64,000 bases of DNA from Gaiellales bacterium (lineage in GTDB: Bacteria > Actinomycetota > Thermoleophilia > BMS3ABIN01), in assembly GCA_003599855.1 (NCBI GenBank), contig QZKG01000070.1, positions 5,698-69,697 of the forward strand. The letters are read 5' to 3'. A model generated the notes under the pieces. That model was not told the origin of the DNA. It saw nothing but the letters and a program-made list of their open reading frames with translations, and ran no database searches. Shown in pieces: positions 42,432 to 64,000 of this stretch; position 1 is the stretch's first letter, and the number at the start of each line of letters is the position of its first letter. The position numbers and the translations under genes are program-made.

Positions 42432-42652
42432 GGCACCGGCGGCGGTTTGCGGAACCGGACGAGGATCAGCAGGGGTGCGGGCAGCGAGCGCTCCCGTTTG
42501 AGCCCTGCTTCAGGAAGCACCCCGGGCAGCCGGCGGCGCAGTCAGCCTGACGCCCGTGGGGCAGGCGTGACGCGGGCCAGGGATACGTCCGGCGTCGCGG
42601 GCGCCTCGATCAGCCGCCGGCTCCGGCGATAACAACTCGATTTCAATTGATT

Positions 42653-47244: not shown

Positions 47245-48642
47245 TTGGACACTTACGTAACGACAGTTGAAAGGGACGGCGTCGATGACGCTGTCGCGGC
47301 GATAATAGCCCGTCATGCGACGCTGCCGCTGGTGGCTGTCCTGCGGGCGCTCATGCAGGAGTACGGTCATTTGAGCGAGGGCGCCCTCAGGGCGCTGGCT
47401 GCCGACCGGCTCGTATCCTTGAGCCGCCTGTATTCGCTGGTGTCGTCGTATGACGACCTGAGGCTCGAGCAGCAGTACGAGGAGGCCCTTCCTGCCGGGA
47501 AGGCAGCGCCCCTCCCCGAGCAGCTGGAGGAGAGCGCCAGCGGGGCGACGGGACTGTTGCAGGGCGGTCCCATCACCGCCAGGTTCGAGGCGCCCGCCCG
47601 CAGTCTCGAAGAATACCGGGCCGCCGGCGGGATGAAAGCCTGGAAGCGGGCGCGGGACCTGGGTTCCAGCAAGCTCTTCTCGGAGATAGTGCTCGGCCCC
47701 ATCACTCGTCAGCCGGATGCCTGGCAGAGGGTCGCCAGCGCCGGCGGCGATGCCGTCATCGTCGCCAACTGCCATGGCGGCGACCCGCTGGCCCGCCAGG
47801 AAGACCTGCTCCTTGAGAGGGACCCCTACTCCATCGTCGAGGGCGTCATGGTGGCCGGCCAGGCCATCAGCGCCAGCCGGGGCTTCATCTACACGAGGCC
47901 CCTGCCCGGGCAGGAGGTCGAGCGCCTTCAGGCCATCGTCGCGGAGATGACGGCCCTGGCTGATTCAGGAATAGCCATCGAGGTGATCGCCGGGCCCGCG
48001 AGCCTGGTGGCGGCGGAGAGCTCGGTGGTCGTGGCGGTGATCGACGGCCTGCGACCGGTGCCGAACGTGAGCGACTTCTCCGCCAGGGGCATCTGGGGGA
48101 GGCCCACCCTGGTGGACACGGGTGAGTGCTTCGCGGCGATCGCTGCGGTCATCGGTGGCGAGGAGGAGGTAAACACGCGCCTCTACCAGTTGACCGGAGC
48201 TGTCGAGCGTGCCGGCATCATCGAGGCCGAGGCGTCGTCGAGCGTGCGCGACCTGATGGAGATCGCCGGGGCGCGCCCGGGGGCGGAAGCGCTGGTGGGC
48301 GGCCTCTCCGGACGTTTTCTTACCGAGGGCGAGGTCGACCAGGAGATGCTGCACCTGAAGCCGGCGATCGGACCGCGCTGGCGGCTGATCCATGTGCTCG
48401 AGGACCCCCGCGACATCTACCCCATGGCGGTGCAGACAGCCGCCTACAACGCCGCCAGCCTGTGCGGCGCCTGTGTGCCCTGCCGCATCGGTTCGGTGCG
48501 CATGGCGGAGATGATCCCGGAATACCTGGTGGATTTCGACAAGCTCGAAGAACTGGCGCGCACGCTGGAACTGACAGGCCTCTGCCTGACCGGCCGCGGC
48601 GCAGCGGCCATGATATCTTCCGCGCTGAGGTACGTCTCCTGA
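47245..48642 (+). CDS. NuoF-like (51-kDa subunit-like) protein with a divergent/degenerate FMN-NADH site and a retained C-terminal 4Fe-4S motif
   Basis: Aligns to NuoF/HydB (EEYRAAGG..., ...VIVANCHGGDPLARQEDLLLERDPYSIVEGVMVAG versus ICNADESEPG...DPHLLIEG, and C-terminal CGACVPCRIGS). The Gly-rich FMN loop (GRGGAGFPTG) is replaced by GPITRQPDAWQ, and the NADH-site glutamates are not conserved. Confidence 0.55.
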   Translation: MDTYVTTVERDGVDDAVAAIIARHATLPLVAVLRALMQEYGHLSEGALRALAADRLVSLSRLYSLVSSYDDLRLEQQYEEALPAGKAAPLPEQLEESASGATGLLQGGPITARFEAPARSLEEYRAAGGMKAWKRARDLGSSKLFSEIVLGPITRQPDAWQRVASAGGDAVIVANCHGGDPLARQEDLLLERDPYSIVEGVMVAGQAISASRGFIYTRPLPGQEVERLQAIVAEMTALADSGIAIEVIAGPASLVAAESSVVVAVIDGLRPVPNVSDFSARGIWGRPTLVDTGECFAAIAAVIGGEEEVNTRLYQLTGAVERAGIIEAEASSSVRDLMEIAGARPGAEALVGGLSGRFLTEGEVDQEMLHLKPAIGPRWRLIHVLEDPRDIYPMAVQTAAYNAASLCGACVPCRIGSVRMAEMIPEYLVDFDKLEELARTLELTGLCLTGRGAAAMISSALRYVS

Positions 48643-48726
48643 AACGGGGCGGCCTCTTGAAAGATACCGGCCCGGCGTAACGCGGGCCAGCAGTCACTGG
48701 ACAACACTACAGACATCGAGGAGGCC

Positions 48727-49572
48727 ATGTACAAGATACTCGAAAAAGAAGACTACTCGGATGACACATACATGCAGGTCATCGAGGCTCCCGCCGTGGC
48801 GCAGAGCTGCCAGGCGGGGCAGTTCGTCATCCTCAGGCTGCACGAGGAGGGGGAGCGGATCCCGCTCACCATCGCTGACTTTGACCGCGAGAAGGGCACC
48901 ATCACCATCGTGGTCCAGGCGGTGGGCAAGACCACCCGCGAGCTGCAGACCTACGGCAAGGGCGACAGCATCGCCAACTTCATCGGCCCCCTGGGTGAGC
49001 CCAGCGAGATCGAGAAGGTGGGCACGGTCATCTGCGCCGGCGGCGGCGTGGGCGTGGCGCCGATCTTCCCCATCGCCCGCGAGCTCAAGAACGCCGGCAA
49101 CAAGGTGATCTCCATCGTGGCGGCGCGCACCGAGAGCCTGCTGCTATGGGAGGACAAGATGCGCGAGGTCAGTGACGAGGTCATCGTCACCACCGACGAC
49201 GGCACCTGCGGCCGCCAGTGCCTGGTGACCGACCCGCTCAAGGAGATGTGCGAGGCCGGCGGCATCGACCTCGTGTACGCCATCGGACCAGCCATCATGA
49301 TGAAATTCTGCTGCAAGACGACGGAGCCGTTCGGCGTCAAGACCATCGTCAGCCTCAACTCGATAATGGTGGACGGCACCGGGATGTGCGGCGCCTGCCG
49401 CGTCAGCGTCGGCGGCGAGACCAAGTTCGTCTGCGTCGACGGGCCGGAGTTCGACGGCCATGAGGTGGATTTCGACCTGCTGATGTCGCGCCAGCGGCAG
49501 TACCTGGAGCAGGAGAAGATCGCGTACGACTATTACTTGGAATGCCGGGGTGATAAAGCATGTCTGACGTAG
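48727..49572 (+). CDS. nfnA: NfnA/SudB-type subunit: FAD/NAD-binding ferredoxin-reductase-like protein with C-terminal 2Fe-2S
   Basis: ICAGGGVGVAPIFPIARE, LVYAIGPAIMMKF and C-terminal CGACRVSV...FVCVDGPEF match the DHOD-electron-transfer-subunit / NfnA family. Confidence 0.65.
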   Translation: MYKILEKEDYSDDTYMQVIEAPAVAQSCQAGQFVILRLHEEGERIPLTIADFDREKGTITIVVQAVGKTTRELQTYGKGDSIANFIGPLGEPSEIEKVGTVICAGGGVGVAPIFPIARELKNAGNKVISIVAARTESLLLWEDKMREVSDEVIVTTDDGTCGRQCLVTDPLKEMCEAGGIDLVYAIGPAIMMKFCCKTTEPFGVKTIVSLNSIMVDGTGMCGACRVSVGGETKFVCVDGPEFDGHEVDFDLLMSRQRQYLEQEKIAYDYYLECRGDKACLT

Positions 49573-51056
49573 AGAAAAATGAGGAAAAAACCGAGGGAGG
49601 CCTGACGCGCAAGGAGCGCATGAAGATACCGCGCACGCCCATCCCCGAGCAGGACGCCAAAGAGCGGGCGAAGAACTTCGACGAGGTCGCCCTGGGCTAC
49701 AGCGCCGACCAGGCGCAGATGGAGGCCCAGCGCTGCCTGCAGTGCAAGAACCCCAAGTGCATCGCCGGCTGCCCGGTGGGGATCGACATCCCCGCCTTCA
49801 TCAAGGCGATCGAAGAGGGCGACCCCGCTGCCGCCATCGCCAAGCTCAAGGAGACCACCAGCTTCCCGGCCGTCTGCGGCCGCGTCTGCCCGCAGGAGGA
49901 GCAGTGCGAGCTGGTCTGCATCGTCGGCAAGAAGAACGACCCGGTGGCCATCGGCCGCCTGGAGCGCTACGCCGCCGACTGGGAGGCTGAGCAGGGGACG
50001 TCCAGCAAGCCCGAGATAGCTGCCAGCAAGGGCAAGAAGGTCGGCGTCGTCGGCTCCGGGCCCGCGGGCGTCACCTGCGCCGGCGAGCTGGCCAAGATGG
50101 GTTACGAGGTCGTCATCTACGAGGCCCTGCACAAGCCGGGCGGCGTGCTGACCTACGGCATCCCCGAGTTCCGCCTGCCCAAGGCGATAGTCTTCCGCGA
50201 GTGCGAGTACGTGGAGAGCCTGGGCGTCGAGATCAAGACCGATTACGTCATCGGCAAGACCATGACCGTCAACGACATGCTGGCCAACGGCCATGACGCC
50301 GTCTTCATCGCCAACGGCGCCGGCCTGCCGGTGTTCATGAACATCCCCGGAGAAAACCTGAACGGCGTCTTCTCCGCCAACGAGTTCCTGACCCGCGCGA
50401 ACCTGATGAAGTCCTACAGGTTCCCCGAGTTCGACACTCCCATCAAGGTCGGCAAGAAGGTAGCCGTTGTGGGCGGCGGCAACGTCGCCATGGATGCGGC
50501 GCGCACCGCCCTGAGGCTGGGCGCCGACGTGCACCTCATCTACCGCCGTTCCCGAGAGGAGATGCCCGCCCGTGCCGAGGAGATCCACCATGCCGAGGAG
50601 GAGGGCATCCAGTTCCACCTGCTCACCAACCCGACGCAGATCATCGGCGACAACGAGGGCTGGGTCGAGGAGATCGAGTGCATCCAGATGGAGCTGGGCG
50701 AGCCCGACGATTCCGGGCGGAGGCGTCCGGTGGCGGTGGCCGGCTCCGAGTACCGCATACCCATCGACGTGGTCATCATGTCTATCGGCACCGGTTCGAA
50801 CCCGATCCTGACCCAGGCTACCCCCGAGCTGGAGCTCAACAAGTGGGGCAACATCGTGGCCGACGAGGAGACCGGCGCCACCAGCATGGAGGGCGTGTTC
50901 GCCGGCGGTGACATCGTTACCGGCGCGGCCACGGTCATCCTCGCCATGGGCGCGGGCAAGATCGGCGCGCGCTCGATCGACCGTTACCTGCAGGGGCTGC
51001 CGCTCAAGCCGGAGCCGGAAGCCGCTGAAGCGGAAGTGGAAGAGACCACAGCCTGA
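49560..51056 (+). CDS. nfnB: NfnB/SudA/GltD-type subunit: NAD(P)H-dependent oxidoreductase with N-terminal Fe-S domain
   Basis: CLQCKNPKCIAGCPVGIDIP, VGVVGSGPAGVTCAGEL, AVVGGGNVAMDAARTA and FAGGDIVTGAATVILAMGAG are GltD-family signatures. 13-nt overlap with nfnA. Confidence 0.7.
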   Translation: MSDVEKNEEKTEGGLTRKERMKIPRTPIPEQDAKERAKNFDEVALGYSADQAQMEAQRCLQCKNPKCIAGCPVGIDIPAFIKAIEEGDPAAAIAKLKETTSFPAVCGRVCPQEEQCELVCIVGKKNDPVAIGRLERYAADWEAEQGTSSKPEIAASKGKKVGVVGSGPAGVTCAGELAKMGYEVVIYEALHKPGGVLTYGIPEFRLPKAIVFRECEYVESLGVEIKTDYVIGKTMTVNDMLANGHDAVFIANGAGLPVFMNIPGENLNGVFSANEFLTRANLMKSYRFPEFDTPIKVGKKVAVVGGGNVAMDAARTALRLGADVHLIYRRSREEMPARAEEIHHAEEEGIQFHLLTNPTQIIGDNEGWVEEIECIQMELGEPDDSGRRRPVAVAGSEYRIPIDVVIMSIGTGSNPILTQATPELELNKWGNIVADEETGATSMEGVFAGGDIVTGAATVILAMGAGKIGARSIDRYLQGLPLKPEPEAAEAEVEETTA

Positions 51057-51077: not shown

Positions 51078-54000
51078 ATGGAAGCGACAACGAGGAAAAG
51101 ACTGGAAGCGGTGAACCTTACCATAAACGGTGAGGCGGTGCGCGCGCTGGCCGGCCAGAGCATCATGCAGGCCGCGCTGGACGCCGGGATCCGCATCCCC
51201 AACCTGTGCAGCGACGGACGTATCGAGCCGGTGGGCTCCTGCCGCCTCTGCATCGTCGAGATCGACGGCGTCAAGGGGTTCCAGACTTCCTGTTCGACTC
51301 CCGTCGCCGAGGGCCAGGTGGTCCAGACGGATACAGAGCCGCTCCGTGACGCCCGCAGGTTGATCCTGGAGCTGATGCTCTCGGACCATAACGCCTACTG
51401 CCTGCCGCCCTGCCAGAGCGGCTGCCCCGACAACCTTGACATCCCGGGTTACGTCGGCGCCATCGCCGACGACAACCCGCGGGAGTCCGTGCGCATCATC
51501 AAGCAGCGGCTGCCGTTCCCCCGCATCCTGGGCCGGGTCTGCCCACGCCCCTGCGAGGACGTCTGCCGCCGCGGCGAGAACGACCAGCCGATCTCCATCT
51601 GTTCCATTAAGCGCTTTGCTGGCGATGCCGCCGCGGAGATGGGCTTCTCCGACCTGCCGTTCCCGCAGGCAGAGCCTACGGGCAAGCGCATCGCGGTGGT
51701 CGGTTCCGGCCCGGCCGGGCTCACCGCTGCCTATTACCTTGCGCTCAAGGGGCATGCGGTTACCATACTCGAATCGCTGCCGGAGCCGGGGGGCATGCTG
51801 CGCTACGCCATCCCGGCCTTCCGCCTGCCCACCGATGTCCTCAACGAGGAGCTGGAAGAGCTCTGGTCGCTGGGGGTCGAGCTCAAGACCAACACGGCCA
51901 TGGGCGAGGACTTCGACATCGACGACCTGCTGGAAGAAGGGTATGACGCTGTCTTTTTGGGCCTGGGCGCTCATGGCGACCACCAGATGATGATCCCGGG
52001 CGAGGAGCTCGACGGGGTAGTCTCATCGGTGGATTTCCTGCGCCGCGTGCGCGCCGGCGAGAAGGTGGACGTGGGCAAGCGGGTGGTGGTGGTGGGTGGC
52101 GGCTTCACGGCCATCGACGCTGCCAGGACCGCGGTGCGCCTGGGCGCTGAAGAATCGACTATCGTCTACCGCCGCGGTCGCGATGAGATGCCGGCCCACG
52201 AATCAGAGGTGGAGGAGGCTGAGGCGGAAGGGGTGCGGCTGCAGCTTTTGGCCATCCCTGAGAAGATTGAGGGTTCCGGCGGCAGGGCCACCGGCCTTAC
52301 CAGCCTGAAGGCCGAGCTGGTCCGGTCGGAGAAGGGCGGCCGGCCGCGGCCGACGGCGATCAAGGGCTCGGAGTTCACCATCGAGGCGGACACCATCATC
52401 GTCGCCATCGGACAGAAGCCCAAGCTCTGTTACGAGGAGGAGGGCCGGCGCGTCCTGTTCCTGCCCGAGAGGGAGGGTGTGAGAACGACGAAGTGGGGCA
52501 CCATCGAGGCTGATCCGGACACGCTGCAGACAGCGCGTCCGCAGGTATTCGCCGGAGGCGACGTAGTTTCCGGCGCGGCGACCGTGATCGAGGCGGTGGC
52601 CGCGGGCCGCAAGGCCGCGAGCACCATGGACGCTTACCTGAAGGGAGAGGATGTCGTCCGGGCGGCTGCCAGGCTCCAGGAAGAGCAGCCGGTCTTCCTC
52701 GACATCAAGCAGGAGCCGGTGGAGAAGGCTTCGCGCCAGCCCATGCCGGTGCTCTGCATCGAGAACTGTTGTGACGATTTCACCGAGGTCGAGCTGGGGT
52801 ACGCCCACGACAAGGCGATCCTGGAGTCATCGCGCTGCATGCAGTGCGTCTGCCAGGCTGAGGCTAGTTGCGCCCTCAGAAGCCTGGGCATAGAGTACGG
52901 CGTCACCGAGAACCGCTTCGAGGGCCGCATGCACCCGGTGCCGGCGCTCGACGACTCCAACCCGGTCATCTCGCGCCAGTACGAAAAATGCATCGTCTGC
53001 GGCGCCTGCGCCAGCATCTGCGACCAGCTTCCTGCCGCCCAGGCGGTGGAACTGTGCGGCACCGGCATGGACACACACGTCGAGGGCGCCTTCAACCGTG
53101 GCCTGGAGGAGACTACCTGCGTCTTCTGCGGGCATTGCGTCGACACCTGCCCTACGGGGGCGCTGGACAACAGGATGAGCATGGATCTCAGGACCCTGCC
53201 GCTGCGCGCCGGCCCGGAGGGGCCGCAGGAAGTACGCCGGGTGAACACCGTCTGTTGCTACTGCGGCGTCGGCTGCTCCCTGACCCTGCACGTCGCCGAC
53301 GGCCGGGTGATAGAGGTTTCCGCAGACGATCACAGCGGCACCAACCTGGGCATGCTCTGCGTCAAGGGACGCTACGGTTTCGATTTCATCCATCACCCTG
53401 ACAGGCTGACGCAGCCGCTCGTCCGCCGCGACGGCGAGCTGGTGCCGGCATCATGGGATGAGGCGCTCAAGGAGGTGAGCGGCGCTCTCCTGCGCATCCG
53501 CGAGGAATACGGCTCCGAGGCTCTGGGCACCATGGCTTCCGGCCGCTGCACCAATGAGGACGACTACCTGATGCAGAAGTTCGCGCGGACGGTCTTCGGC
53601 AACAACAACGTCGACCATTGCGCCCGATTATGACACGCTCCTTCGGTCGCCGGTCTGGCGGCAGCGTTCGGAAGCGGTGCGATGACCAACTCGGTGGGGG
53701 ATCTCACCGAGGCTGACGTCATCCTCCTGATAGGCTCCAACACCACGACGGCCCATCCGGTGATCGCCATGCAGCTCAACCAGGCCCTGAGGCGCGGCAT
53801 GAAGCTGATCGTGGTGGACCCGCGCAGGACTACCCTGGCGCGCAAGGCGGACATCCACCTGCAGATACGCGGCGGCACCGATATCGCCCTGCTCAAGGGG
53901 CTGGCGCGCGTGGTCGCCGACGAGAACCTCCAGGATGACGGCTTCATCCGCGACCGTACCGAGGATTACGAGGAGATGCTGGCCGGGCTCGGCGAGATGA

Positions 54001-55259
54001 CGGTGGAGGAGTACGCCGCCACCTGCGGCGTCGACCCCGAGGATCTGGCCGCGGCGGCGCGGCTCTATGCCGGTTCGGATCACGGCGCCATCGCCTACTG
54101 TCTCGGGGTAACCCAGCATTCCCACGGTACTGACAACGTACGCTGCATCGCCAACCTGGCCATGATGACAGGACACATCGGCCGCCCCGGCACCGGCGTT
54201 AACCCCCTGAGGGGCGCCAACAACGTCCAGGGCTGCTGCGACATGGGCGGCCTGGTGAACGTGCTGCCGGGTTACCAGCCGGTGGAGTCGGACGAGGCCC
54301 GCGCCCGCTACGAGGAGGCCTGGGGCGTCGAGCTCAGTCCCGTGGTCGGCAAGACGCTCACCGAGATGATCGACGCCGCCAACGAGGGCAGTCTCAAGGC
54401 CATGTACATCATGGGCGAGAACCCGATGATGTCCGACCCCGACGGCAACCACGTCCGCTCTGGACTGGAGAACCTGGAGTTCCTGGTGGCGCAGGACATC
54501 TTCCTCACCGAGACGGCCCAGCTGGCCGACGTCGTGCTGCCCGGCGCCACTTTCGCCGAGAAGGACGGCACCTTCACCAATACCGAGAGGCGCGTCCAGC
54601 GCGTGCGCCAGGCCATCGAGCCGTTGGGTGAAGCGCGGCCGGACTGGATGATACTGCGCGACGTCGCCAACCTCATGGGGGCACGCTGGGACTACGACAG
54701 CCCGAAAGACATCATGGATGAGGTCAACAGCCTGGTGCCCCAGTACGGCGGCGCCAGCTACGAACGCCTGGAGGCATGCGGCCTGCAGTGGCCCTGCCCC
54801 GACGCCGACCACCCCGGCACGAGGATCCTCCACATGGAGAACTTCATCTGCGGCAAGGGCAAGATGAAGGATGTCAGCTTCCGCGAAGCGGATGAGCTTC
54901 CCGACGAGGAGTACCCCTTCGTCTTCAACACGGGCAGGCACCTGATGCACTTCCACACCGGCAGCATGTCCAGGCGCTCACGCGGCCTCGACGCGCTGGA
55001 CCCGGAGCCGCTGGTGGACCTCAACCCCGAGGACGCCCGGCGCCTGGGGGTAGCCGAGGGTGAGCTGATCAGGGTCACCAGCAGGCGAGGTGAGATCACG
55101 GCCAAGGCGATGCTTACCGTGCGCACCGCTCCCGGGACGGCGTTCCTGCCCTTCCACTACGTCGAGGCGGCCGCCAACCTGCTGACTAATTCGGCTCGGG
55201 ACCCAGTCTGCAAGATACCTGAATTGAAGGTATGCGCGGTGCGGATAGAGAAAGTCTGA
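51078..55259 (+). CDS. fdhA: Selenocysteine-containing formate dehydrogenase catalytic subunit (FdhA/FdhF-type molybdo/tungstopterin enzyme) fused N-terminally to a 2Fe-2S ferredoxin and a GltD-like NAD(P)H oxidoreductase module. One 1393-codon ORF with an in-frame UGA (Sec) at 53631-53633.
   Basis: Track ORFs 51078..53633 and 53682..55259 are in the same frame, separated only by the TGA. Context [27 protein letters not shown] matches the FDH-H active site (..CARV-U-HGPSVAGL..). A SECIS-like hairpin lies just downstream. Upstream: NuoG-like 2Fe-2S (CSDGRIEPVGSCRLC), GltD module (RIAVVGSGPAGLTAAY, VVVVGGGFTAIDAARTA), 2x4Fe-4S, and the MopB N-terminus (VCCYCGVGCS). Confidence 0.75.
53634..53670 (+). 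ncRNA. Bacterial SECIS element (mRNA hairpin directing Sec insertion at UGA 53631)
   Basis: Stem GUCGCC (53646-53651) pairs with GGCGGC (53657-53662), including one G-U wobble. The apical loop GGUCU is identical to the conserved fdhF SECIS apical loop, and it starts 12 nt after the UGA. Confidence 0.6.
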
Positions 55260-55297: not shown

Positions 55298-56593
55298 ATG
55301 GATACCCGGAGCGAATTGTCCCCAGAAGAGGCAGGTCCGGCAGCGAGGACCGATCTGCTCAGGCGCGCTGCGCTGGCGTTGCTGATGGCTGTGGTGTTCG
55401 TGGCCGTCATCTACCCCGAGACCTTCATCACCAGCTTCCCCCTGATCGGCAGCGAATGGACCAGCCCGATGACGCTGCTGATGGCCCCCGTCATCCTGGT
55501 GACCGCGGCCATCGTCTGGCGTGAGCGGGGCCGGATCGGTTTCGCTCCCGCGGACGCCCTGCTCTTGCTGTTCTTCGCATATGTCCTGGCCAGGAACGTA
55601 TCCGGGCTCCCTCTGTTCACGGTCAAGTACGTGGTATATGGCGTCGCCCTCTACTACCTGGCCGCCGCGCTATCCGCGCGGGTTCGCGACCTGCGGCGGA
55701 TCCTGGTGTTCGTATCGCTCCTGGTCGCAGTGACGGCGGTCTACGGGCTCGCTGAGTACGCGGCGCAGGCAAATTTCCTTTACCGTGACGTGATCTCGGT
55801 GATCGTGCCTAAAAACGCCACCCACCGCGTCAGCTCCTTCCTGGCCCATCCGGTGGTGTTCGCCGCCTTCATAGTGCAGGCGCTGCCGTTCACTTTCCTG
55901 CTCTGGGTCAGGGGCTGGAACCGCTGGGCCGCCCTGGCGGGCGCCGCCTCTTCGCTCATGGCCGTCGCCTGCCTCTTCCTGACGTCATCCAAGGGGAGCT
56001 GGATCACGGCTTTCGCGGCAGGGGTGGTGGTTGCCGTGTATTTCATCAGGACGCGGGGCAAGAAGAGCATGTTCATCATGCTGGCAGTGTTCCTGCTTGC
56101 GGCGCTGACCGCCGGCATGTACCTGAGCCGCTCCTCCCTGGACGAGATCTTCCGCACCAGCACCAGCGTCGACGTGCGTGTCGCCAGCTGGGAGGCCGCG
56201 GTCAAGGGCATCAAAGAGAACCCGGTTTTCGGGGTCGGCCTCAAGCAGGGGGAAGAGGAGGTCGTCGAGCAGCTCCCTGACTGGTGGAAGAAGCTGACCG
56301 GATTCGAGCCGCCGGTGGATAATTATTACCTCAACGTCGTCCTTGAAGAGGGGATCGTCGGCGGCGCCCTCTGGCTGGCGCTGATGGTGATGATCCTTTA
56401 TGGAGGCTACCGGGCCGTGGGGCTCAACAGGGAAGGGCGCTTCATTTTCGTGGCGGCCTACCTGAGCATCATCGTGCTGGCGCTCAACATGCTCACCTTC
56501 GATGCCCTCCTGATAGCCCCCAACCGCGTCCTCTTCTGGGTGGCGGCCGGCATCCTGCGGGCTACATATCCTTACGACGCCCGGACCGGCTGA
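55298..56593 (+). CDS. O-antigen ligase / Wzy-like polysaccharide polymerase family membrane protein, paralog 1
   Basis: ~10 TM helices, a large periplasmic loop, and a Wzy_C-like region (SSKGSWITAFAAGVVVAV). 431 aa. Confidence 0.55.
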   Translation: MDTRSELSPEEAGPAARTDLLRRAALALLMAVVFVAVIYPETFITSFPLIGSEWTSPMTLLMAPVILVTAAIVWRERGRIGFAPADALLLLFFAYVLARNVSGLPLFTVKYVVYGVALYYLAAALSARVRDLRRILVFVSLLVAVTAVYGLAEYAAQANFLYRDVISVIVPKNATHRVSSFLAHPVVFAAFIVQALPFTFLLWVRGWNRWAALAGAASSLMAVACLFLTSSKGSWITAFAAGVVVAVYFIRTRGKKSMFIMLAVFLLAALTAGMYLSRSSLDEIFRTSTSVDVRVASWEAAVKGIKENPVFGVGLKQGEEEVVEQLPDWWKKLTGFEPPVDNYYLNVVLEEGIVGGALWLALMVMILYGGYRAVGLNREGRFIFVAAYLSIIVLALNMLTFDALLIAPNRVLFWVAAGILRATYPYDARTG

Positions 56594-56653
56594 ACCCCGG
56601 CAAAGCAGGTAGTGAACGGCAAGGGCGTATTGTTAACTAAGTTAATCATATTG

Positions 56654-56682
56654 TTGAAAATATTTGATACCTGATGTATAAA
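56654..56682 (+). promoter_or_regulatory. AT-rich promoter island for the polysaccharide operon: TTGAAA-N17-TATAAA, preceded by the palindrome TTAACTAAGTTAA
   Basis: Local AT-rich stretch (56630-56690) in a 65% GC background. -35 56654-56659, -10 56677-56682. The 6-1-6 palindrome at 56633-56645 sits just upstream of the -35. Confidence 0.45.
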
Positions 56683-56923
56683 GAAAAAGCGCGGTGAGGA
56701 GTGAATCAGGCTTGGTTGCAGGGTGGTTTGCGCCCATGCCAGGTCAGCCCCCGTAACTGCTAGCGCCGCGAATGACACTAGATGCCCGTGTCACACCACC
56801 AGGGAATTGATTTTGGCGCAGACAGACGACCACATACTTGCTTCGAATGACAGCCGCCGCGAGGACAAATGGAGTTTCCTGCCCTATGAACAGGAGCGGG
56901 AGATCCCCCGGCGCGAAGTGCAG

Positions 56924-58369
56924 ATGCTGCGCGCCGTCCATGCGGTAGTAATACCGCTGGTCGACATGGTGACGCTGACGCTGGCCGTGGTGGTCTCATA
57001 CCTGCTGGTCAAGGACTGGGTCAACAGCGGCCAGCTGGAGGGGCTTTTGGGCAGGAGTCTCGGCGTCATCGACATCAAGGTCCTTTGGATCGGGCTGGCG
57101 ACCGTCCCCCTCTGGATGCTGGTTTTCGTCTATTACGGCGTCTACAGGCGCGAGACGCGGCGCCTCTCCATCTCCACATTCGACGAGCTGCCGCAGACCA
57201 TAGGGGCCATTGCCGTGGGAGCCTGGGTGATGTTCTCCTTCCTGGCGCTCATCAGCAAGGGCAGTCCCACCGGGCGCGCCCTCTGGGCTTTCGTCGCCGT
57301 CGTCTGGCTCCTGCTCATGATCCTGGTGCCCACCGGCCGCGCGCTGCTCAGGGTAGGGCTGTCATTCTATAACCCCTTCCGCTCCAGCACCCTCGTGGTC
57401 GGCGCCGGCGAGGTGGGGCGCAGCCTCATCGGCCGGCTGCAGCGCCACAAGGAATACGGACTACGTGTCGTCGGATTTCTCGACACATCGCCGCCGGGCG
57501 AGGGGGAAGATGCGTCGCAGGTGGAGATCCTCGGGCGGCCGTCCGACCTGATGTCCATCGTCGACCGCTTCGGCATCAGCCGGGTGATAATAGCTTTTTC
57601 AAGGACGCCCCACCCGCAGATGCTTGATATAATACACCAGTGCCAGGAGATGAAAGTCGACGTCAGCGTCGTGCCGCGTTTCTTCGAGGCGCTTTCGCCG
57701 AACGTGGAGATGGAGGATATCGAGGGGCTTCCGGTCATCAGCCTGCCCCGATACGCACGGCACGGGAGGATTCACCGGGCAGCGAAGCGGCTGATCGACC
57801 TGCTGGTAGCTTCCCTGGCGACGATCCTGCTCTCCCCCGTGCTGTTGCTGGTGGGGACGCTGATCAAGCTGGACTCACCCGGAACCGTCTTTTTCAAACA
57901 GGAAAGGATGGGCAGGGACCGCAAGCGGTTCATGATGTACAAGTTCCGCTCGATGAAGGTCGGAGCTGAAGGCGAGAGGGAACTGCTGGCTGACAGGAAC
58001 GAGACCACCGGGCCGATCTTCAAGATGAAGGACGATCCCCGGATAACCCGCGTCGGGCGGATCATAAGGCGTTTCAGCATCGACGAGCTGCCGCAGGTGA
58101 TCAATGTCTTTCGGGGCGAGATGAGCATCGTCGGGCCGCGTCCGCTGCCCGTGCATGAGGCAGAGCAGTGCACCGGCACCGCCGACATGAGGCACATGGT
58201 CCAGCCCGGGATAACCGGTCTCTGGCAGGTACTGGGGCGCAGTGACATCCCCTTCGAGGAGATGGTCCAGCTCGACTACCTCTACGTCACCAACTGGACG
58301 TTGAGGTGGGATATCAAGATAATACTCAGGACGTTTATCGCGATCGTGCGGAAGCGGGGGGCTTACTGA
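56924..58369 (+). CDS. Polyprenyl-phosphate glycosylphosphotransferase (bacterial sugar transferase, WbaP/EpsL-like priming enzyme)
   Basis: N-terminal TM helices, then the C-terminal catalytic domain KRLIDLLVASLATILLSPVLLLVGTLIKLDSPGTVFFKQERMGRDRKRFMMYKFRSM...DELPQVINVFRGEMSIVGPRP. Start moved to the internal Met (MLRAVHAVV), since the upstream track extension looks non-coding. Confidence 0.7.
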   Translation: MLRAVHAVVIPLVDMVTLTLAVVVSYLLVKDWVNSGQLEGLLGRSLGVIDIKVLWIGLATVPLWMLVFVYYGVYRRETRRLSISTFDELPQTIGAIAVGAWVMFSFLALISKGSPTGRALWAFVAVVWLLLMILVPTGRALLRVGLSFYNPFRSSTLVVGAGEVGRSLIGRLQRHKEYGLRVVGFLDTSPPGEGEDASQVEILGRPSDLMSIVDRFGISRVIIAFSRTPHPQMLDIIHQCQEMKVDVSVVPRFFEALSPNVEMEDIEGLPVISLPRYARHGRIHRAAKRLIDLLVASLATILLSPVLLLVGTLIKLDSPGTVFFKQERMGRDRKRFMMYKFRSMKVGAEGERELLADRNETTGPIFKMKDDPRITRVGRIIRRFSIDELPQVINVFRGEMSIVGPRPLPVHEAEQCTGTADMRHMVQPGITGLWQVLGRSDIPFEEMVQLDYLYVTNWTLRWDIKIILRTFIAIVRKRGAY

Positions 58370-58453
58370 CGGACAGTCGAGCTGAGCCACTGTGACGGCG
58401 GTCGAGCGGTGCGGATAACGGGTTTTGGCCCACAGATGAGGCGGTAGGCGAAA

Positions 58454-59752
58454 TTGACTGAGAGCAAAGCAGGCAAGGGCGGGCAGACGGTTGTGATCGG
58501 ACTCGACGGGACTCCGTGGAGTTTTCTCAGCAAGGAGATGGAAGAAGGCAACCTGCCGCACCTGGCGGGCATCTTCTCGCGGGGCGCGTTCAACCGGATG
58601 ACGACCGAGATCCCGACGATATCATCCGTGGCCTGGGCCTCCTTCATGACCGGCAGGAACCCGGGCGAGCACGGCATCTACGGCTTCACTGACCGCAAAC
58701 CTGGGACCTACGACCTTTACTTCCCCAACTACAGCCATCTCAAGAGCGAGCCGCTCTGGGAGACTCTGGGCCGTAAGGGCAAGCGCTGTTGCGTGCTGAA
58801 TGTGCCCTCCACCTACCCCGCGCGACCGCTCAACGGTGTTCTCGTCTCTGGATTCGTGGCGCCCGACCTGGCGCGCGCGACCTATCCCGTCGAAGCGCTG
58901 GAATACCTGGAGAAGAGCGGCTACCGCATCGACGTCGACGCCGCCAAGGGGCGCGAGTCGCTGGACCTCCTGATCGATGATCTCCACGAGACCATGGAAA
59001 GGCGGCGGGACGCCATCCTGCATTTCTGGAACCAGGAAGCCTGGGACCTGTTTGTAGCTGTCTTCACCGGCACTGACCGGCTGCACCATTTCATGTGGCG
59101 GCATTACGATGAGGGGGACGGCGTATACTCGCGGGAGTTCCTGCATTACTACCGGCGCCTGGATGAGATCATCGGCGAGTTCGCCGCCGGCCTTCCGGAA
59201 GAAACCAGCCTCTTCATGCTATCGGACCACGGGTTCTGCTCCATCCGCTCCGAGGTCTACCTCAACTACTTCCTGAGGGAGATGGGCTATTTGTCCCTGA
59301 GGGAGGGGCGGGCGGTGACCATCGCCGACATGGATCCGGCCGGTACGCGCGCATACTGCATGGACCCCGGGCGCGTCTACGTTAACCTGCAGGGGCGGGA
59401 ACCGGGGGGGACGGTGCCCGAGAGCGCGTACGACGCCGTCCTGGACGAGCTGACCGAAGCGCTCCTGGGGATCACCGACCCCGAAACCGGGGAGCGTGTG
59501 GTGGCAACGGTGCACCGGCGGGACGAACTCTTCCATGGACCGCTGCTGGAGTCAGCCCCGGACCTGGTGGCCATGCCCGCGCAGGGTTACGACATCAAGG
59601 GCGCCATCGGCAGGCCGAAGGGCCTGGACCGCGGCCACCTGACGGGCATGCATACCCACGATGACGCCTTCTGGTACGCCTCTCCGGGAGCGGGAGCGAC
59701 TGTCAGCCACATCAGGGAAGCGGCTGCCGTCATCGCGGGTCAAGTCTCCTAG
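58454..59752 (+). CDS. Alkaline-phosphatase-superfamily protein (type I phosphodiesterase / nucleotide pyrophosphatase family), paralog 1
   Basis: VVIGLDGTPWSF...PTISSVAWASFMTGRNPGEHGIYGF matches the metal-site/nucleophile region of the Phosphodiest family. No TM segments. 432 aa. Confidence 0.55.
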   Translation: MTESKAGKGGQTVVIGLDGTPWSFLSKEMEEGNLPHLAGIFSRGAFNRMTTEIPTISSVAWASFMTGRNPGEHGIYGFTDRKPGTYDLYFPNYSHLKSEPLWETLGRKGKRCCVLNVPSTYPARPLNGVLVSGFVAPDLARATYPVEALEYLEKSGYRIDVDAAKGRESLDLLIDDLHETMERRRDAILHFWNQEAWDLFVAVFTGTDRLHHFMWRHYDEGDGVYSREFLHYYRRLDEIIGEFAAGLPEETSLFMLSDHGFCSIRSEVYLNYFLREMGYLSLREGRAVTIADMDPAGTRAYCMDPGRVYVNLQGREPGGTVPESAYDAVLDELTEALLGITDPETGERVVATVHRRDELFHGPLLESAPDLVAMPAQGYDIKGAIGRPKGLDRGHLTGMHTHDDAFWYASPGAGATVSHIREAAAVIAGQVS

Positions 59753-59781
59753 AAAAAGAATCATTGCCACAGGAACCGGAC

Positions 59782-61062
59782 ATGCGCACACCAGAGACGG
59801 CAAGCCCCGTCGAGAAAGCCGCCTTTGCGTGCCTGCTGCTGGCCCTGGCTCTCGCTTTGTTCTATCCGGAGTCGTTCATCCTGCCCCAGCCCGAGATCGC
59901 CGGCTTCAGGGTCGTGCCGCTGACTTGGGTGACGCCGATCATCGCCCTGGTCACCGTAGTGAGCCTTTTCATCCGCAGGAAGTCGCTGCGTTTCGCATGG
60001 ACAGATGCGGCCATGCTGGCTTTCTTCGCGTTCGTGATCGTGCGCACGGCGGTCTCCGGCTTCGAACTGCCTGGCGCTTTCAAGTACTTCATACTGGGCG
60101 CCGGGGCCTATTACCTGGCTGCGGTATCGTTGTCGAAGCCGCGGCTGCGCGAGGCGTTCCTCTGGTTTATCGCGGTCATCGTGCTCATCATCGCAGCATA
60201 TGGTTTTTTGGAGTTCGCGCTGCAGAAGAACCACCTGTTCCATGACCACATCGCCAGGATAGTCGTGGAGAGAGAGGACGGTGTGCACCGCAGCGGCTCC
60301 ACCCTGGCTCATCCCGTTGTCTACGGGGCGGTCCTGGTGCAGATCATACCGCTGCTGGCGCTGATGTGGCTGCGAGCCGGCAGCCATGCGGGCAGGGTGG
60401 CCGGGGGCATCGCTTCGATGGTCTCCATCACCGCGGTGGTGCTCACCTTCTCGAAGGGCAGCTGGATCGCGGTATCGTTTTACGGGGCCGCGCTGCTGCT
60501 GACCCTGCTCTACCGCAGGCCGGCTGGCGGGCTGAAGGTGATCATCGCCTCCCTGGCTGTTGCGATCACAGCGCTGGTTGTCTTTTGGAGGCAGATCTAC
60601 CAGGAGACGCTGGTGCGTTCCGAGGAGAGCGCGCTGGTCAGGCTGGCTACCTGGCAGGGAGCAGTCGAGGCCATCCGCGAGAGGCCCTGGATCGGGTACG
60701 GTTTCCGCCAGGGCAGGAAGAAGCTGGAGATGATGGATGTCGGCCAGAAATACTACGAGATGACATCCAGGGCCATACCGGTGGACAATAACTACCTCAG
60801 CCTGCTGCTCGACCTGGGTGTAGCCGGATTCATCCTGTGGCTGGCGTTCCTGGGCGCTGTCGCCGCTTCAGCCATCGGCGGCATGCTGTCGGGGAGACAT
60901 GACGAGTACTGGCTGGCTGCGATCCTGGCGTCCATGGTGGGCCTGGCGGTCACAGCGCTGACTTTCGAGGCCTGGATCTCCTGGCCGACGTTCATGCTGT
61001 TCATGGCTTGTGCCGGCACGGTCTCCGCCATTGTCCGTTCAGATCCTCCGGATCGACGGTGA
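59782..61062 (+). CDS. O-antigen ligase / Wzy-like membrane protein, paralog 2
   Basis: Topology and blocks equivalent to paralog 1 (AHPVVYGAVLVQIIPLLALMWLR versus AHPVVFAAFIVQALPFTFLLWVR; SKGSWIAVSF versus SKGSWITAFA). Start at ATG 59782. Confidence 0.55.
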   Translation: MRTPETASPVEKAAFACLLLALALALFYPESFILPQPEIAGFRVVPLTWVTPIIALVTVVSLFIRRKSLRFAWTDAAMLAFFAFVIVRTAVSGFELPGAFKYFILGAGAYYLAAVSLSKPRLREAFLWFIAVIVLIIAAYGFLEFALQKNHLFHDHIARIVVEREDGVHRSGSTLAHPVVYGAVLVQIIPLLALMWLRAGSHAGRVAGGIASMVSITAVVLTFSKGSWIAVSFYGAALLLTLLYRRPAGGLKVIIASLAVAITALVVFWRQIYQETLVRSEESALVRLATWQGAVEAIRERPWIGYGFRQGRKKLEMMDVGQKYYEMTSRAIPVDNNYLSLLLDLGVAGFILWLAFLGAVAASAIGGMLSGRHDEYWLAAILASMVGLAVTALTFEAWISWPTFMLFMACAGTVSAIVRSDPPDRR

Positions 61063-61189
61063 AGATACGGTTTTACGAGCACATCTGCTGCTCAGGCAGG
61101 GATATTCCCATGGTCATAAGCTATAATTATTATCAGGCAAGCTGGAATTTCATGCTGCTCACACGCTATGGGAAAGGGGTTACCCGGAT

Positions 61190-62845
61190 TTGGCCAGCAA
61201 GGTCGTTGTAATCGGAATCGACGGGGGGACGTTCGATCTGTTCATCCCGTGGATGGAGGCAGGCCATATGCCGGTGCTGGCTGAGCTCGTCCGGCAGGGG
61301 GTGCGCTCTGAACTGGCGACCACCTATCCTCCACTGACGTGTCCCGCATGGTGGTCCCTGTCCACGGGCAAGAACCCTGCCCGTTTCGGCTCCTACCATT
61401 TCTGGCAGATCGCCCCCGGCAGTTACGAGATCCGGCGGTCGAAGTCTTACGGACCCGGGAAGAACATGGAGTTGTGGAACCTCCTGAACGATGCCGGTTT
61501 CCGCTGCGGGATCATCAACAACCCGATAATGTTCCCCCCGGCCAGGATAGATGATTATGCGGTGGCCGGCTGTTTTGCCAGCGTGAAATCCGATTACACC
61601 TGGCCCAGGGAGTTCCGGAAGACGCTGGACGAGATCGCCGGCCCTGGCGGCTACGAGCTGGATTCCCTCACGGGGGAGAGCAAGTCAGACGAGGACACGA
61701 CCAGGGATTGCCTGAGGGTGCTCGAAAAACGCAGAAGGGTGATGACCCATCTTCTGGCTGCCGAAGACCGGCCGGACTTCTTCCTCGGCGTCATCACCGA
61801 GTCGGACCGGATGTGCCACCGGCTGCTGAATCGCGTCGGCAAGGGCGGGGAGCTGGCGGAGAGCTCGGAGCGGATGCTGATTGAATTCTTCCGCGCCATG
61901 GACTCGGCCATCGGCGACATGGTGGATGCGATCCACGAAGACGACTACCTGATAGTCATGTCGGACCACGGGTTCGGCAGGCGCGACCGCGGCTTCTACA
62001 TAAACGAGTGGCTGCGGCAGGAAGGGTACCTCGCCGTCCGGACGGGGTCGGTAGCCGGCAGGATCAAGAGCTCTGCGCGGCGCGGCGTGAACTCCGCCCT
62101 CAACAGGCTCGGCCTGCGGGACTTCATCAAGGCGAAGGTGCCCAGGAGCATCCTTACCAGGCTGGCGCCCGCGGGGGATGTCGAAGGAGAGGGGAAAGCC
62201 ATCTACGATTTCATCCAGAACGGGATGGTGGACTGGTCCAGGACCAGGGCCATCGCGCTCCAGGATGGCCTGATCTATTTCAACACCACCGACCGGCCCG
62301 AGGGCATCGTGCAGCCGGGCGAGGATTACGAGAGGTTCCGCGAGGAGCTGATCGAGAAGCTCGGCAATCTCACTGACCCGGATACGGGTGAGAGGCTGGC
62401 GACGGAAGTCCGGCGCAAGGAGGATATCTACCAGGGGGACTACATGGCAGAGGCGCCGGATGTCTACCTGGCTATCGAGGGCTACAGCATCGCGGCGTTC
62501 CCCAATATCCGGACCGACGGCAGGCTGATGGGCGAACTGGCCCTTGCCGGCCACAGGCAGGATGGCATGCTGATAGTGAGAGGACCCAACATCAGGGTCG
62601 GCGAGGAGATCGGCAAGGCCAACATAATAGACCTGGCGCCGACTGTCATGCATATCATGGGCGTCCCCGTGCCGGACGACATGGACGGCCGCGTGATCAG
62701 GGAGCTGTTCGTACCCGGGACCGGTCTTGCGGAGGCCGATGAAGCCTACCAGGAGGCAAGATATTCTGAAAAGGAAAGCGTCGAAGCGGACGCGGATGAA
62801 GACGAAGAGATACGCAAGCGTCTTGAAGAGCTTGGCTACCTGTAA
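61190..62845 (+). CDS. Alkaline-phosphatase-superfamily protein (type I phosphodiesterase family), paralog 2, with acidic C-terminal tail
   Basis: VVIGIDGGTFDL...PPLTCPAWWSLSTGKNPARFGSYHF and MSDHGF blocks are shared with paralog 1. 551 aa. C-terminal EADADEDEE tail. Confidence 0.55.
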   Translation: MASKVVVIGIDGGTFDLFIPWMEAGHMPVLAELVRQGVRSELATTYPPLTCPAWWSLSTGKNPARFGSYHFWQIAPGSYEIRRSKSYGPGKNMELWNLLNDAGFRCGIINNPIMFPPARIDDYAVAGCFASVKSDYTWPREFRKTLDEIAGPGGYELDSLTGESKSDEDTTRDCLRVLEKRRRVMTHLLAAEDRPDFFLGVITESDRMCHRLLNRVGKGGELAESSERMLIEFFRAMDSAIGDMVDAIHEDDYLIVMSDHGFGRRDRGFYINEWLRQEGYLAVRTGSVAGRIKSSARRGVNSALNRLGLRDFIKAKVPRSILTRLAPAGDVEGEGKAIYDFIQNGMVDWSRTRAIALQDGLIYFNTTDRPEGIVQPGEDYERFREELIEKLGNLTDPDTGERLATEVRRKEDIYQGDYMAEAPDVYLAIEGYSIAAFPNIRTDGRLMGELALAGHRQDGMLIVRGPNIRVGEEIGKANIIDLAPTVMHIMGVPVPDDMDGRVIRELFVPGTGLAEADEAYQEARYSEKESVEADADEDEEIRKRLEELGYL

Positions 62846-62887
62846 TTCCCCACTGACGGCAATCTGCGATTGAAAGCAACGGAAACA

Positions 62888-64000
62888 ATGGATTCTGCCG
62901 CGCCCGGAAGCAGCGATAAACTGACCAGCATGGCGACTGGCGCCGGCATCAATTTCGCCGGCACCTTCCTGCGCGCCCTGCTTGGTTTCGGCTTCAGCTT
63001 CATGATCTCGCGGGTCTTGACGCTGTCGGACCTCGGCCTTTTCACGCTGGGCTCCACCATCGTGATCGTCCTCTACTATTTTTGCGTCATGGGCACCGAC
63101 TCAGGATTATGGCGCTATGTATCCGCATACCGCGCGAAGGGCGACATCGCCCGGGCCAACGGCGCCATCGCGGGCGCGTTATATCTTGCCTTGCCATTGA
63201 GCCTGGTTATGACCGTGGCGCTCCTGGTTGCGGCCGGCCCGGTCGCCACGGGCATTTTCAAGGAGCCCGACTTCACCGGCGCCCTGCGGGCATTCGCCCT
63301 GACTATCCCTTTGCTGGTGGCCGCGCGGATCTTCAACGCGGCCACCCAGGGCTTCCAGCAGATGAGGTATTCAGCCTATCGGGAGATGTCCGAGCAGGGC
63401 TTGCGGCTCCTGTTCACGGCGCTGCTGTTCATCGCGGGCTTCAGGCTCGGTGGAGCCCTGGCTGCCAACCTTGCCGCGGTGCTGGTGATAACAGTGATGT
63501 CGTTCATGTTCCTGGAGCGCGTAGCCCCCTCTGTGATGCGGAGGCACAACCACGTCTTCGAGCTGAAGACGCTCATGAGCTTCTCCATCCCCATGGGCGC
63601 TTCCCTGATCCTGACGCACATGATCCTCTGGAACGATACCATCCTCCTCGGGTATTTCGGGACGTCATCCGACGTCGGACTCTACAGTGTCGCCATCAGG
63701 CTCATCGTCGTGGCCGCCATCATGCAGACATCATTCAACACGATGTTCGCGCCCGTCATCTCAGACCTGCATACGCGGGGTCTGCATGAGGACCTCGAAG
63801 AGATGTTCAAACGCGTGACGCGCTGGGTCGTGACCCTCAGTTTGCCGATCTTCCTGCCGTTGATGCTGTTCGGCTCGAACGTGCTGCTCATCTTCGGCGA
63901 GCGTTTCACCGTGGTATACCTGAGCCTTGCCATATTATCGCTGGGGCAGCTCGTCAACGTCTCCACGGGGCCGGTCGGCGGCATGATCTGCATGTCAGGG
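62888..64000 (+). CDS. Wzx-like polysaccharide flippase (MOP superfamily); 3' end lies outside the window
   Basis: Translated from ATG 62888 to the window end with no stop (not in the track, which lists a wrong-frame ORF 63082..63789). Multi-TM protein with Wzx-like hydrophobic periodicity. Confidence 0.55.
   Translation, partial: MDSAAPGSSDKLTSMATGAGINFAGTFLRALLGFGFSFMISRVLTLSDLGLFTLGSTIVIVLYYFCVMGTDSGLWRYVSAYRAKGDIARANGAIAGALYLALPLSLVMTVALLVAAGPVATGIFKEPDFTGALRAFALTIPLLVAARIFNAATQGFQQMRYSAYREMSEQGLRLLFTALLFIAGFRLGGALAANLAAVLVITVMSFMFLERVAPSVMRRHNHVFELKTLMSFSIPMGASLILTHMILWNDTILLGYFGTSSDVGLYSVAIRLIVVAAIMQTSFNTMFAPVISDLHTRGLHEDLEEMFKRVTRWVVTLSLPIFLPLMLFGSNVLLIFGERFTVVYLSLAILSLGQLVNVSTGPVGGMICMSG

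Follow-up and report, generated by a model that had tools for sequence, protein, structure and literature searches.

Does a TGA codon in the middle of a formate dehydrogenase locus separate two genes, or is it read as selenocysteine (Sec) within a single one? The question arises from a 64,000-nucleotide stretch of a Gaiellales bacterium genome (GenBank assembly GCA_003599855.1, contig QZKG01000070.1; hereafter the window), in which the list of open reading frames (ORFs) gives two neighbours, 51078-53633 (851 amino acids, aa) and 53682-55259 (525 aa), in the identical frame. Translated as a whole, the region comprises 1393 codons in one frame with this TGA as its sole internal stop, and the TGA sits within the active-site motif of formate dehydrogenase (FDH). 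Conserved active-site residues, among them the catalytic histidine, are encoded by the 16 codons that separate the TGA from the ATG called as the next start. A sequence-only reading of this DNA had claimed one polypeptide of about 1393 aa, with the UGA at the FDH selenocysteine active site and a selenocysteine insertion sequence (SECIS) hairpin behind it. The evidence assembled here supports that claim and corrects the annotation: the two annotated neighbours are one 1393-residue formate dehydrogenase read through UGA as selenocysteine (Table 1).

The assignment of the codon is carried by comparison with homologues and orthologues. The homologue panel consisted of the best 120 database clusters. 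Every aligned full-length cluster of at least 1300 aa, about 85 of the 120, has cysteine (Cys) at the Sec position; these clusters read HCARL-C-H or a near variant, and all of them keep the His and the Arg of PLRGQNNV. Another 11 clusters, the window's own product included, hold proteins of 842-876 aa that match just the first 61% of the query, and the six short-cluster sequences that were read all end in ...HCARL. At the DNA level we compared seven distinct short orthologues (60-84% identical) from nine independent assemblies, which include bacterium BMS3Abin01 (GCA_002897715.1) and an 'Actinomycetes bacterium' metagenome-assembled genome (MAG; GCA_021790075.1). The stop is TGA in all seven, and where the contig extends that far the frame continues for about 541 codons after it; the exceptions are locus L085, with a second stop 379 codons after the TGA, and locus L089, whose contig ends before the frame does. 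The tblastn alignments between the window and the orthologues cross the TGA without a break, with identities of 68-85% after it against 60-84% before it, and exactly one internal stop is present in each orthologue apart from L085. The TGA also occurs in two fused relatives of 48% identity (L003 and L004, the latter a Rokubacteria MAG). Because the TGA and the conserved downstream part recur in independent assemblies and in relatives, a sequencing error, which the sequence-only reading had named as a way in which it could fail, is excluded, and so is a pseudogene.

Two features of individual loci were seen along the way. In L085 (GCA_024275795.1), the post-UGA part at 5054-6631 is broken by the second stop and called as genes of 363 and 97 aa, which points to an assembly error or gene decay in that MAG. 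At several metagenome loci (L108, L109, L115, L129-L131, L133-L136, L140, L144), TGA-type and Cys-type DHCxRL-x-H motifs lie on one strand within about 9 kb, which suggests neighbouring Sec and Cys FDH paralogues.

The paradigm of the fdhF-type bacterial SECIS is that of Escherichia coli fdhF. In the window, a perfect 6-bp stem with a GGUCU pentaloop begins 12 nt 3' of the TGA, positions +16 to +21 pairing with +27 to +32. Its conservation was assessed in a panel of 45 distinct Sec-type and 54 distinct Cys-type sequences, each 63 nt from the Sec or Cys codon, drawn from the orthologues and from FdhA genes among the metagenome matches listed (mostly non-fused FdhA). The full 6-bp stem is present in 40/45 Sec-type but 4/54 Cys-type sequences, and five of the six pairs in a further 5/45 and 4/54, respectively; the loop reads GGUCU in 43/45 against 5/54. 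Within the 45 Sec-type sequences, 98.1% of the stem cells are paired, compared with 87.3 +/- 1.2% in shuffles, and cells in which both partners have changed number 27, compared with 7.0 in shuffles; not one of 500 shuffles reached either value. When the 3' arm was slid by 1-3 columns as a control, 17-67% of the cells were paired. The column pair 18:30 occurs in all four Watson-Crick forms (G:C 23, C:G 12, U:A 6, A:U 4), and the change from C:G in the window to G:C in the two fused relatives L003 and L004 is made by two synonymous codon changes. Synonymous variation is restricted near the TGA: in the eight closest sequences, the first 30 nt from the TGA have 8 of 10 third-codon positions unchanged, whereas bins at a distance of at least 60 nt have 0-3 of 10. 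The spacing, the loop and the fdhF-type character had been proposed from the letters of the window, with loss of the hairpin in orthologues set beforehand as the refuting test; the position proved exact and the hairpin conserved.

The likeness to the fdhF-type SECIS (RF01989) extends to the location of the hairpin, which lies inside the gene and immediately 3' of the UGA, to a G-rich, GGUC-containing apical loop that begins 18 nt after the UGA, and to the overlap with a conserved peptide, H-x-x-S/T-V-x-G-L. The RF01989 consensus register has a bulged U, whereas the window hairpin has a GGUCU pentaloop on a perfect 6-bp stem. Judged by its covariation, the hairpin is a genuine SECIS, predicted to be fdhF-like in function, but it is not a scored member of RF01989. 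As a separate observation, one Cys-type FdhA gene from a metagenome (L157) retains all six pairs of the stem together with a GGUCU loop (GTGGCC-GGTCT-GGCCGC), a pattern that would be expected following a recent Sec-to-Cys switch.

What does the reunited chain encode? Its C-terminal half scores 838.7 bits with the NCBIfam equivalog TIGR01591 (Fdh-alpha; cut-off 666.25), aa 724-1390 covering profile positions 1-672 of 672. The Pfam domains Molybdop_Fe4S4 (aa 721-773, 56.6 bits), Molybdopterin (aa 776-1198, 291 bits) and Molydop_binding (aa 1281-1387, 105.1 bits) are all above their cut-offs. A Cys-His-Arg triad has been used as the criterion for an FDH active site (PMC8965080); the corresponding residues are intact here, as Sec852-His853 and Arg1045 in NPLRGANNVQG. 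The best relatives in the PDB are FdhF of hydrogen-dependent CO2 reductase (HDCR; 7qv7_S) and an F420-dependent FDH (9t1s_L), with E of about 6e-222. On these family matches the C-terminal half is classed as formate dehydrogenase alpha of the FdhF type (MopB superfamily). Relatives of about 1200-1275 aa (P0098, P0101-P0120) have lost the Cys/Sec-His motif, and their precomputed Pfam lists contain no Molydop_binding.

The N-terminal half is an electron-input module. In Pfam the whole chain runs Fer2_4, Fer4_20, Pyr_redox_2, 4Fe-4S dicluster, Molybdop_Fe4S4, Molybdopterin and Molydop_binding, which is the domain order that the sequence-only reading had given. That reading had described the N-terminal part as a [2Fe-2S] domain plus GltD; both are present, but the module is larger, being a complete PRK12814-like unit that includes a 2x[4Fe-4S] domain, and aa 10-654 span the whole 657-position PRK12814 profile ([2Fe-2S], GltD and 2x[4Fe-4S]). 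Within the GltD-like part, Fer4_20 covers aa 108-189 (76.8 bits; two [4Fe-4S] sites) and Pyr_redox_2 aa 204-510 (115.8 bits), and the PDB matches are NfnB structures (4ylf_B, E = 4e-92; 5jca_L, E = 2e-90). It carries the FAD motif GSGPAG, the glycine motif G340GGFTA345 (GxGxxA) expected for NADPH, and an Arg pair, Y364RR366. The Arg pair is kept in 120/120 of the best homologue clusters and the glycine motif in 119/120, P0097 reading GGVNAA. A second glycine motif of the form GxGxxA indicates NADP(H) (PMC7483475), and in the NfnB-like Fdh3B the 2'-phosphate of NADPH is assigned to an Arg-Arg pair (PMC8965080); by these motifs the physiological partner would be NADPH rather than NADH. Two motifs, HxxxCxxxCxxxCP and CxxCxCxxxxC, mark GltD integrated in a NuoG-like protein (PMC7483475). 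The window protein has the first without deviation, as H104NAYC108LPPC112QSGC116P, and an approximation of the second, as C587MQC590VC592QAEASC598, with five residues in the last gap against four in the published motif. The N-terminal half is placed by its matches as a relative of NfnB/gltA (TIGR01316) and PRK12814, and as an equivalog of neither.

The N-terminal module also exists as a separate gene. Among the matches listed, it was found in 76 species-representative genomes (L005-L080), mostly Limnocylindria/Chloroflexota; the products are about 700 aa long and 42-49% identical, and they match the query only to position 696-699, without the MopB part. An FDH-like MopB sequence is absent within 10 kb of these genes. 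The true fusions among the genome-contig matches listed are L001-L004 only. The MAG GCA_021790075.1 encodes both a standalone N-terminal-type protein (L006) and a Sec-type fused FDH (L086).

Table 1. Predicted features of the formate dehydrogenase locus (positions in the window)
Feature	Position	Strand	Basis
Sec formate dehydrogenase gene, single chain with on-board NADPH module	51078..55259	+	One frame, one internal TGA
[2Fe-2S] ferredoxin domain, aa 11-86	51108..51335	+	Pfam Fer2_4, E = 2.3e-22, 79.3 bits against cut-off 22.8
GltD/NfnB/SfrB-like module, aa 103-525	51384..52652	+	Fer4_20, Pyr_redox_2, NfnB structures
Second junction motif C587-x2-C-x-C-x5-C598, then 2x[4Fe-4S] domain, aa 637-695	52836..53165	+	Pfam Fer4_7, Fer4_Nqo3
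FDH catalytic part: Molybdop_Fe4S4, Molybdopterin, Molydop_binding	53238..55238	+	Pfam, TIGR01591
UGA Sec codon, residue 852, motif HCARL-U-H	53631..53633	+	Cys in homologues, TGA in orthologues
SECIS apical hairpin: 5' arm GUCGCC 53646-53651, loop GGUCU 53652-53656, 3' arm GGCGGC 53657-53662	53646..53662	+	Covariation
Rfam SECIS_3 (RF01989) match	53628..53686	+	48.7 bits, E = 1.9e-10, 301-nt permissive search
NfnB-like gene, immediately upstream of FDH	49560-51056	+	TIGR01316, 624 against cut-off 471.75
NfnA-like gene	48727-49572	+	NF004862, 420 against cut-off 220
Divergent NuoF-like ORF, 465 aa	47245-48642	+	Weak Complex1_51K and NADH_4Fe-4S; 89.8 bits against NuoF cut-off 558.65

The gene stands last in a complete Wood-Ljungdahl cluster at 27.6-55.3 kb. 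The cluster starts with formyl-tetrahydrofolate (formyl-THF) synthetase (Fhs), followed by RACo, CooC, FolD, AcsD, CooS/AcsA, AcsB and AcsC, and continues with a GltD-like-2x[4Fe-4S]-MvhD fusion, MetV, MetF, an AcsE-like methyltransferase and the NuoF-like, NfnA-like, NfnB-like and FDH genes. The position in this cluster and the NfnAB and NuoF-like neighbours (47245-51056) are as the sequence-only reading had stated. The order NuoF-like, NfnA, NfnB, FDH is repeated in L081, L086, L087 and L089, that is, wherever the upstream sequence suffices, and the NuoF-like gene lies between acsE and nfnA in these four relatives; the contig of L085 starts at nfnA and shows NfnA, NfnB and FDH. The first approximately 160 residues of the NuoF-like protein match no family, and its best PDB relatives are 9n5u_B, HydB and StnB (E = 1e-25 to 1e-28). 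It could be a component of methylene-THF reductase, similar to RnfC2, or a partner of the FDH. The genes of the cluster include none recognised as NuoE-like. In three Cys-type fused homologues that were examined (Methylocystis, Thermoleophilia, Fibrobacteria), no redox partner genes lie nearby, and the fused chain appears self-sufficient because these homologues stand without such genes. For the actinobacterial clades UBA1414 and RBG-13-55-18, figure legends on the Wood-Ljungdahl neighbourhoods of single-cell genomes name gltD, fdh, nuo and met genes (PMC7325909). Related UBA1414 populations were reportedly enriched in Hakuba H2/iron cultures.

We propose, with a probability of roughly 0.8, that the product is a cytoplasmic single-chain Mo/W-pterin Sec formate dehydrogenase that carries out NADPH-driven reduction of CO2 to formate for the Wood-Ljungdahl pathway, with NADPH supplied by NfnAB. 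In the proposed mechanism, the Sec-specific elongation factor SelB would bind the hairpin 12 nt after the UGA and deliver Sec-tRNA, so that the ribosome would insert Sec at the UGA and read through the remaining 541 codons. NADPH would reduce the FAD of the built-in GltD/SfrB-like module, and electrons would pass singly from the two [4Fe-4S] clusters of this module to the NuoG-like clusters ([2Fe-2S], junction, 2x[4Fe-4S]), to the [4Fe-4S] cluster of the catalytic domain and finally to the Mo/W-bis-pterin. This order of clusters is a tentative one, drawn by analogy with the cryo-electron microscopy (cryo-EM) structure of StnC, in which a linear FAD-to-cluster path is seen (PMC10482914). At the active site, Sec852, His853 and Arg1045 would act in the conversion of CO2 to formate, a reaction that should be reversible. 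The formyl-THF synthetase of this gene cluster would then take up the formate, while NfnAB would regenerate NADPH from NADH and reduced ferredoxin. The pathway context suggests that the direction in vivo is CO2 reduction, and the chain presumably works without further subunits. In cells, the reduction of CO2 with NADPH operates close to equilibrium (PMC13040438).

This proposal has close counterparts among known enzymes. The NADP-FDH of Moorella thermoacetica, a W-Se enzyme (beta, sfrB2; alpha, sfrA2 + fdhF3; Moth_2312-2314), is likewise cytoplasmic and Sec-containing; it performs NADPH-driven CO2 reduction as the first Wood-Ljungdahl step, NADPH enters via an SfrB/GltD-type subunit, and NfnAB supplies the NADPH (PMC13040438, PMC6405883, PMC5736913). 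It differs, by its description, in consisting of two polypeptides (96 + 76 kDa, alpha2beta2) instead of one chain of 1393 aa. The Moorella alpha gene is also listed as two genes (PMC13040438); this is probably a UGA-split annotation artefact and does not mean two polypeptides, a point on which the paper itself is silent. Fdh3 of Thermococcus onnurineus NA1, composed of Fdh3A, the NfnB-like Fdh3B and Fe-S subunits, is a proven NADP-dependent, reversible FDH (PMC8965080). There, an NfnB/GltD-type FAD subunit with an Arg-Arg site, which corresponds to R365-R366 of the window protein, feeds a Mo/W-pterin FDH via Fe-S clusters; in contrast to the single-chain, Sec-containing window enzyme, Fdh3 is archaeal, multi-subunit, Cys-type and tungsten-dependent, and its context is not a Wood-Ljungdahl one.

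The closest architectural parallels are StnC of Sporomusa ovata (8oh5/8oh9) and the Bfu-type NfnA (9n5u, 9bov), which combine [2Fe-2S], an inserted GltD, [4Fe-4S] and an FdhF-like domain (PMC7483475, PMC10482914). StnC (8oh5_C, 1172 aa) aligns to window residues 11-1075 with E = 2.5e-207 and stops before Molydop_binding. The FdhF-like domain of StnC is catalytically dead, and StnC needs StnA and StnB for its activity as a bifurcating transhydrogenase, whereas the window protein keeps the Sec-His-Arg residues and Molydop_binding, and its cluster is without a NuoE-like partner. The same design principle is found in the composite NADP-dependent [FeFe]-hydrogenase ACL20074 of Desulfitobacterium hafniense, which stands alone without Hnd partner subunits (PMC9888536); in place of a Mo/W-pterin FDH it has an [FeFe]-hydrogenase as the catalytic module, and selenocysteine is absent.

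Several observations weigh against the proposal. The NADPH specificity is based on short motifs only. The N-terminal half scores under the equivalog cut-offs, with 644.3 against 916 for PRK12814 and 362.4 against 471.75 for TIGR01316. The comparison of the hairpin with SECIS models, which had been suggested as a check, gave a mixed outcome: SECIS_3 does match with the E value of Table 1, but its score is below the Rfam gathering score of 63. No Rfam match at gathering thresholds was obtained in the window or the seven orthologue loci, and the 60 nt that follow the UGA do not fold with a better energy than shuffled sequences do (z = +1.16). Folding thermodynamics cannot by itself support a hairpin in this GC-rich gene; thus, comparative evidence was used instead. 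Searches of the 64-kb window and 10 orthologue loci gave no tRNA-Sec and indeed no tRNA, and Pfam scans of 40 ORFs within these 64 kb gave no SelA, SelB or SelD family. In the literature searched, which was limited and is not proof, no fused enzyme combining an intact FDH with a GltD insertion has been characterised. Finally, the conserved NuoF-like gene upstream leaves room for a larger complex.

That larger complex is an alternative that we consider unlikely. The fused protein would be the large subunit of a multi-subunit bifurcating or confurcating CO2 reductase, docked on the NuoF-like protein and perhaps NfnAB as StnC is docked on StnAB, with NADPH and either reduced ferredoxin or NADH jointly driving CO2 reduction. 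Among the PDB matches, the characterised proteins with such an N-terminal architecture, StnC (8oh5_C) and NfnA (9n5u_A), reportedly work in complexes with NuoF-like and NuoE-like subunits (PMC10482914, PMC9304861), 9bov_A was deposited alongside a NuoF-like chain, 9bov_B, and the NuoF-like ORF of the window resembles 9n5u_B, HydB and StnB and keeps its position in four relatives. Considering that NADPH-driven CO2 reduction is near equilibrium, an extra driving force would also be useful (PMC13040438). However, the cluster has no NuoE/BfuC-like gene, the NuoF-like ORF falls well below the NuoF cut-off (Table 1), and it is without the N-terminal 2Fe-2S and C-terminal 2x[4Fe-4S] Pfam domains described for StnB and HydB (PMC7483475). 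Moreover, nfnAB separates the NuoF-like gene from the FDH gene, and fused Cys-type homologues elsewhere are without such neighbours. Since the NuoF-like gene adjoins metVF and acsE, it may belong to methylene-THF reductase instead. In Acetobacterium woodii, RnfC2 belongs to methylene-THF reductase. The bifurcation tentatively raised by the sequence-only reading therefore finds no support here, given the missing NuoE-like gene, the low NuoF score and the Cys-type homologues that stand alone. A more specific version, in which the Sec-FDH with the NuoF-like protein and/or NfnAB would form an undescribed confurcating CO2 reductase using NADPH and reduced ferredoxin or NADH, is more doubtful again; if true, it would drive CO2 reduction forward where H2 or CO2 is very scarce, and it would differ from the HylABC-FdhF2 type and the Bfu type.

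The catalytic identity of the chain and the meaning of the TGA can be questioned as well. StnC is annotated as a formate dehydrogenase and yet shows no oxidation of formate (PMC7483475), and both StnC and 9bov_A align to residues 11-1075 with E of about 1e-207 to 1e-221, so the window protein might be a Stn/Sfr-type NADPH oxidoreductase in which the MopB-like domain is merely an Fe-S scaffold. This is very improbable: the inactive relatives of about 1200-1275 aa lost exactly the Cys/Sec-His motif and Molydop_binding that the window protein keeps together with Arg1045, the protein is above the TIGR01591 equivalog cut-off, and the upkeep of a costly Sec codon and SECIS is sensible only with a working active site. 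Even less credible, to the point of near exclusion, is a TGA that is a real stop or a sequencing error, leaving either a GltD-like Fe-S flavoprotein with a MopB stub beside a 525-aa MopB fragment, or a pseudogene. Gene-calling programs and public annotations do split the gene at the TGA, the N-terminal product of BMS3Abin01 is named 'glutamate synthase [NADPH] small chain', and the Sec machinery is not seen in the window. A split at this position, however, would cut the [4Fe-4S] domain of the MopB fold off from the remainder of that fold and from the catalytic His, and it would leave that conserved His among the 16 codons ahead of the called ATG. The recurrence of the TGA in nine independent assemblies speaks against an error, and the post-TGA part that is as conserved as the pre-TGA part, the covarying SECIS and the Cys of homologues at the TGA position all speak against a stop. 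We thus retain the single-chain, NADPH-dependent Sec formate dehydrogenase as the preferred reading.

How new is such an enzyme? The architecture had been called unusual, which does not hold: fused Cys-type proteins of 1300-1450 aa fill about 85 of the best 120 database clusters, and where they are named, they are usually called the alpha (or major) subunit of 'formate dehydrogenase'. The recoding mechanism is textbook, and Moorella and Thermococcus already provide FDHs with a GltD-type NADPH module. GltD inserted in NuoG-like proteins has likewise been described for StnC, the Bfu-type NfnA and the Desulfitobacterium hydrogenase (PMC9888536). For a catalytically intact FDH with a GltD insertion in one chain, no description was found in the limited literature searched. 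The present case is a fused variant of a known enzyme type together with an annotation correction, and it does not overturn current understanding.

The correction nevertheless matters for the interpretation of genomes. With the gene split at the UGA and its first part named 'glutamate synthase small chain', the enzyme that opens the Wood-Ljungdahl pathway can be overlooked or wrongly named in metabolic reconstructions of uncultured bacteria that have this pathway. Selenocysteine, together with an NADPH pool regenerated by NfnAB, appears to serve these organisms in CO2 reduction, which constrains models of their energy metabolism. A single-chain, self-sufficient NADPH-dependent CO2 reductase, or formate:NADP+ oxidoreductase, would also be an attractive biocatalyst, and expression of the many Cys-type fused homologues, such as the 1404-aa protein of Methylocystis hirsuta, would be less difficult than that of the Sec form.

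The remaining observations concern the surroundings of the gene. A second GltD-module fusion of 667 aa is encoded at 42647-44650 (+), with Fer4_20 and Pyr_redox_2, 2x[4Fe-4S] and a C-terminal MvhD/FlpD domain. It lies directly upstream of metV-metF and has the same position in BMS3Abin01 (L081); its product may be an NADPH-linked electron-input subunit for methylene-THF reductase, replacing HdrABC-MvhD. Downstream of the FDH gene, 55298-64000 (+) holds cell-envelope polysaccharide genes (a Wzy_C O-antigen ligase-like gene, a Bac_transf sugar transferase and several of the Phosphodiest family). A similar set follows the FDH gene in L081-L089, with Polysacc_synt flippases in 6/7 relatives with called downstream genes; because envelope-type genes follow in the window and in the relatives, the Wood-Ljungdahl cluster ends at the FDH gene across the lineage. 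At the other end, a gene of the Ni_insertion family, which we take to be LarC-like, lies directly upstream of the formyl-THF synthetase gene at 26232-27431 (+), and a DUF3786 protein is encoded farther upstream at 14646-15263 (-).

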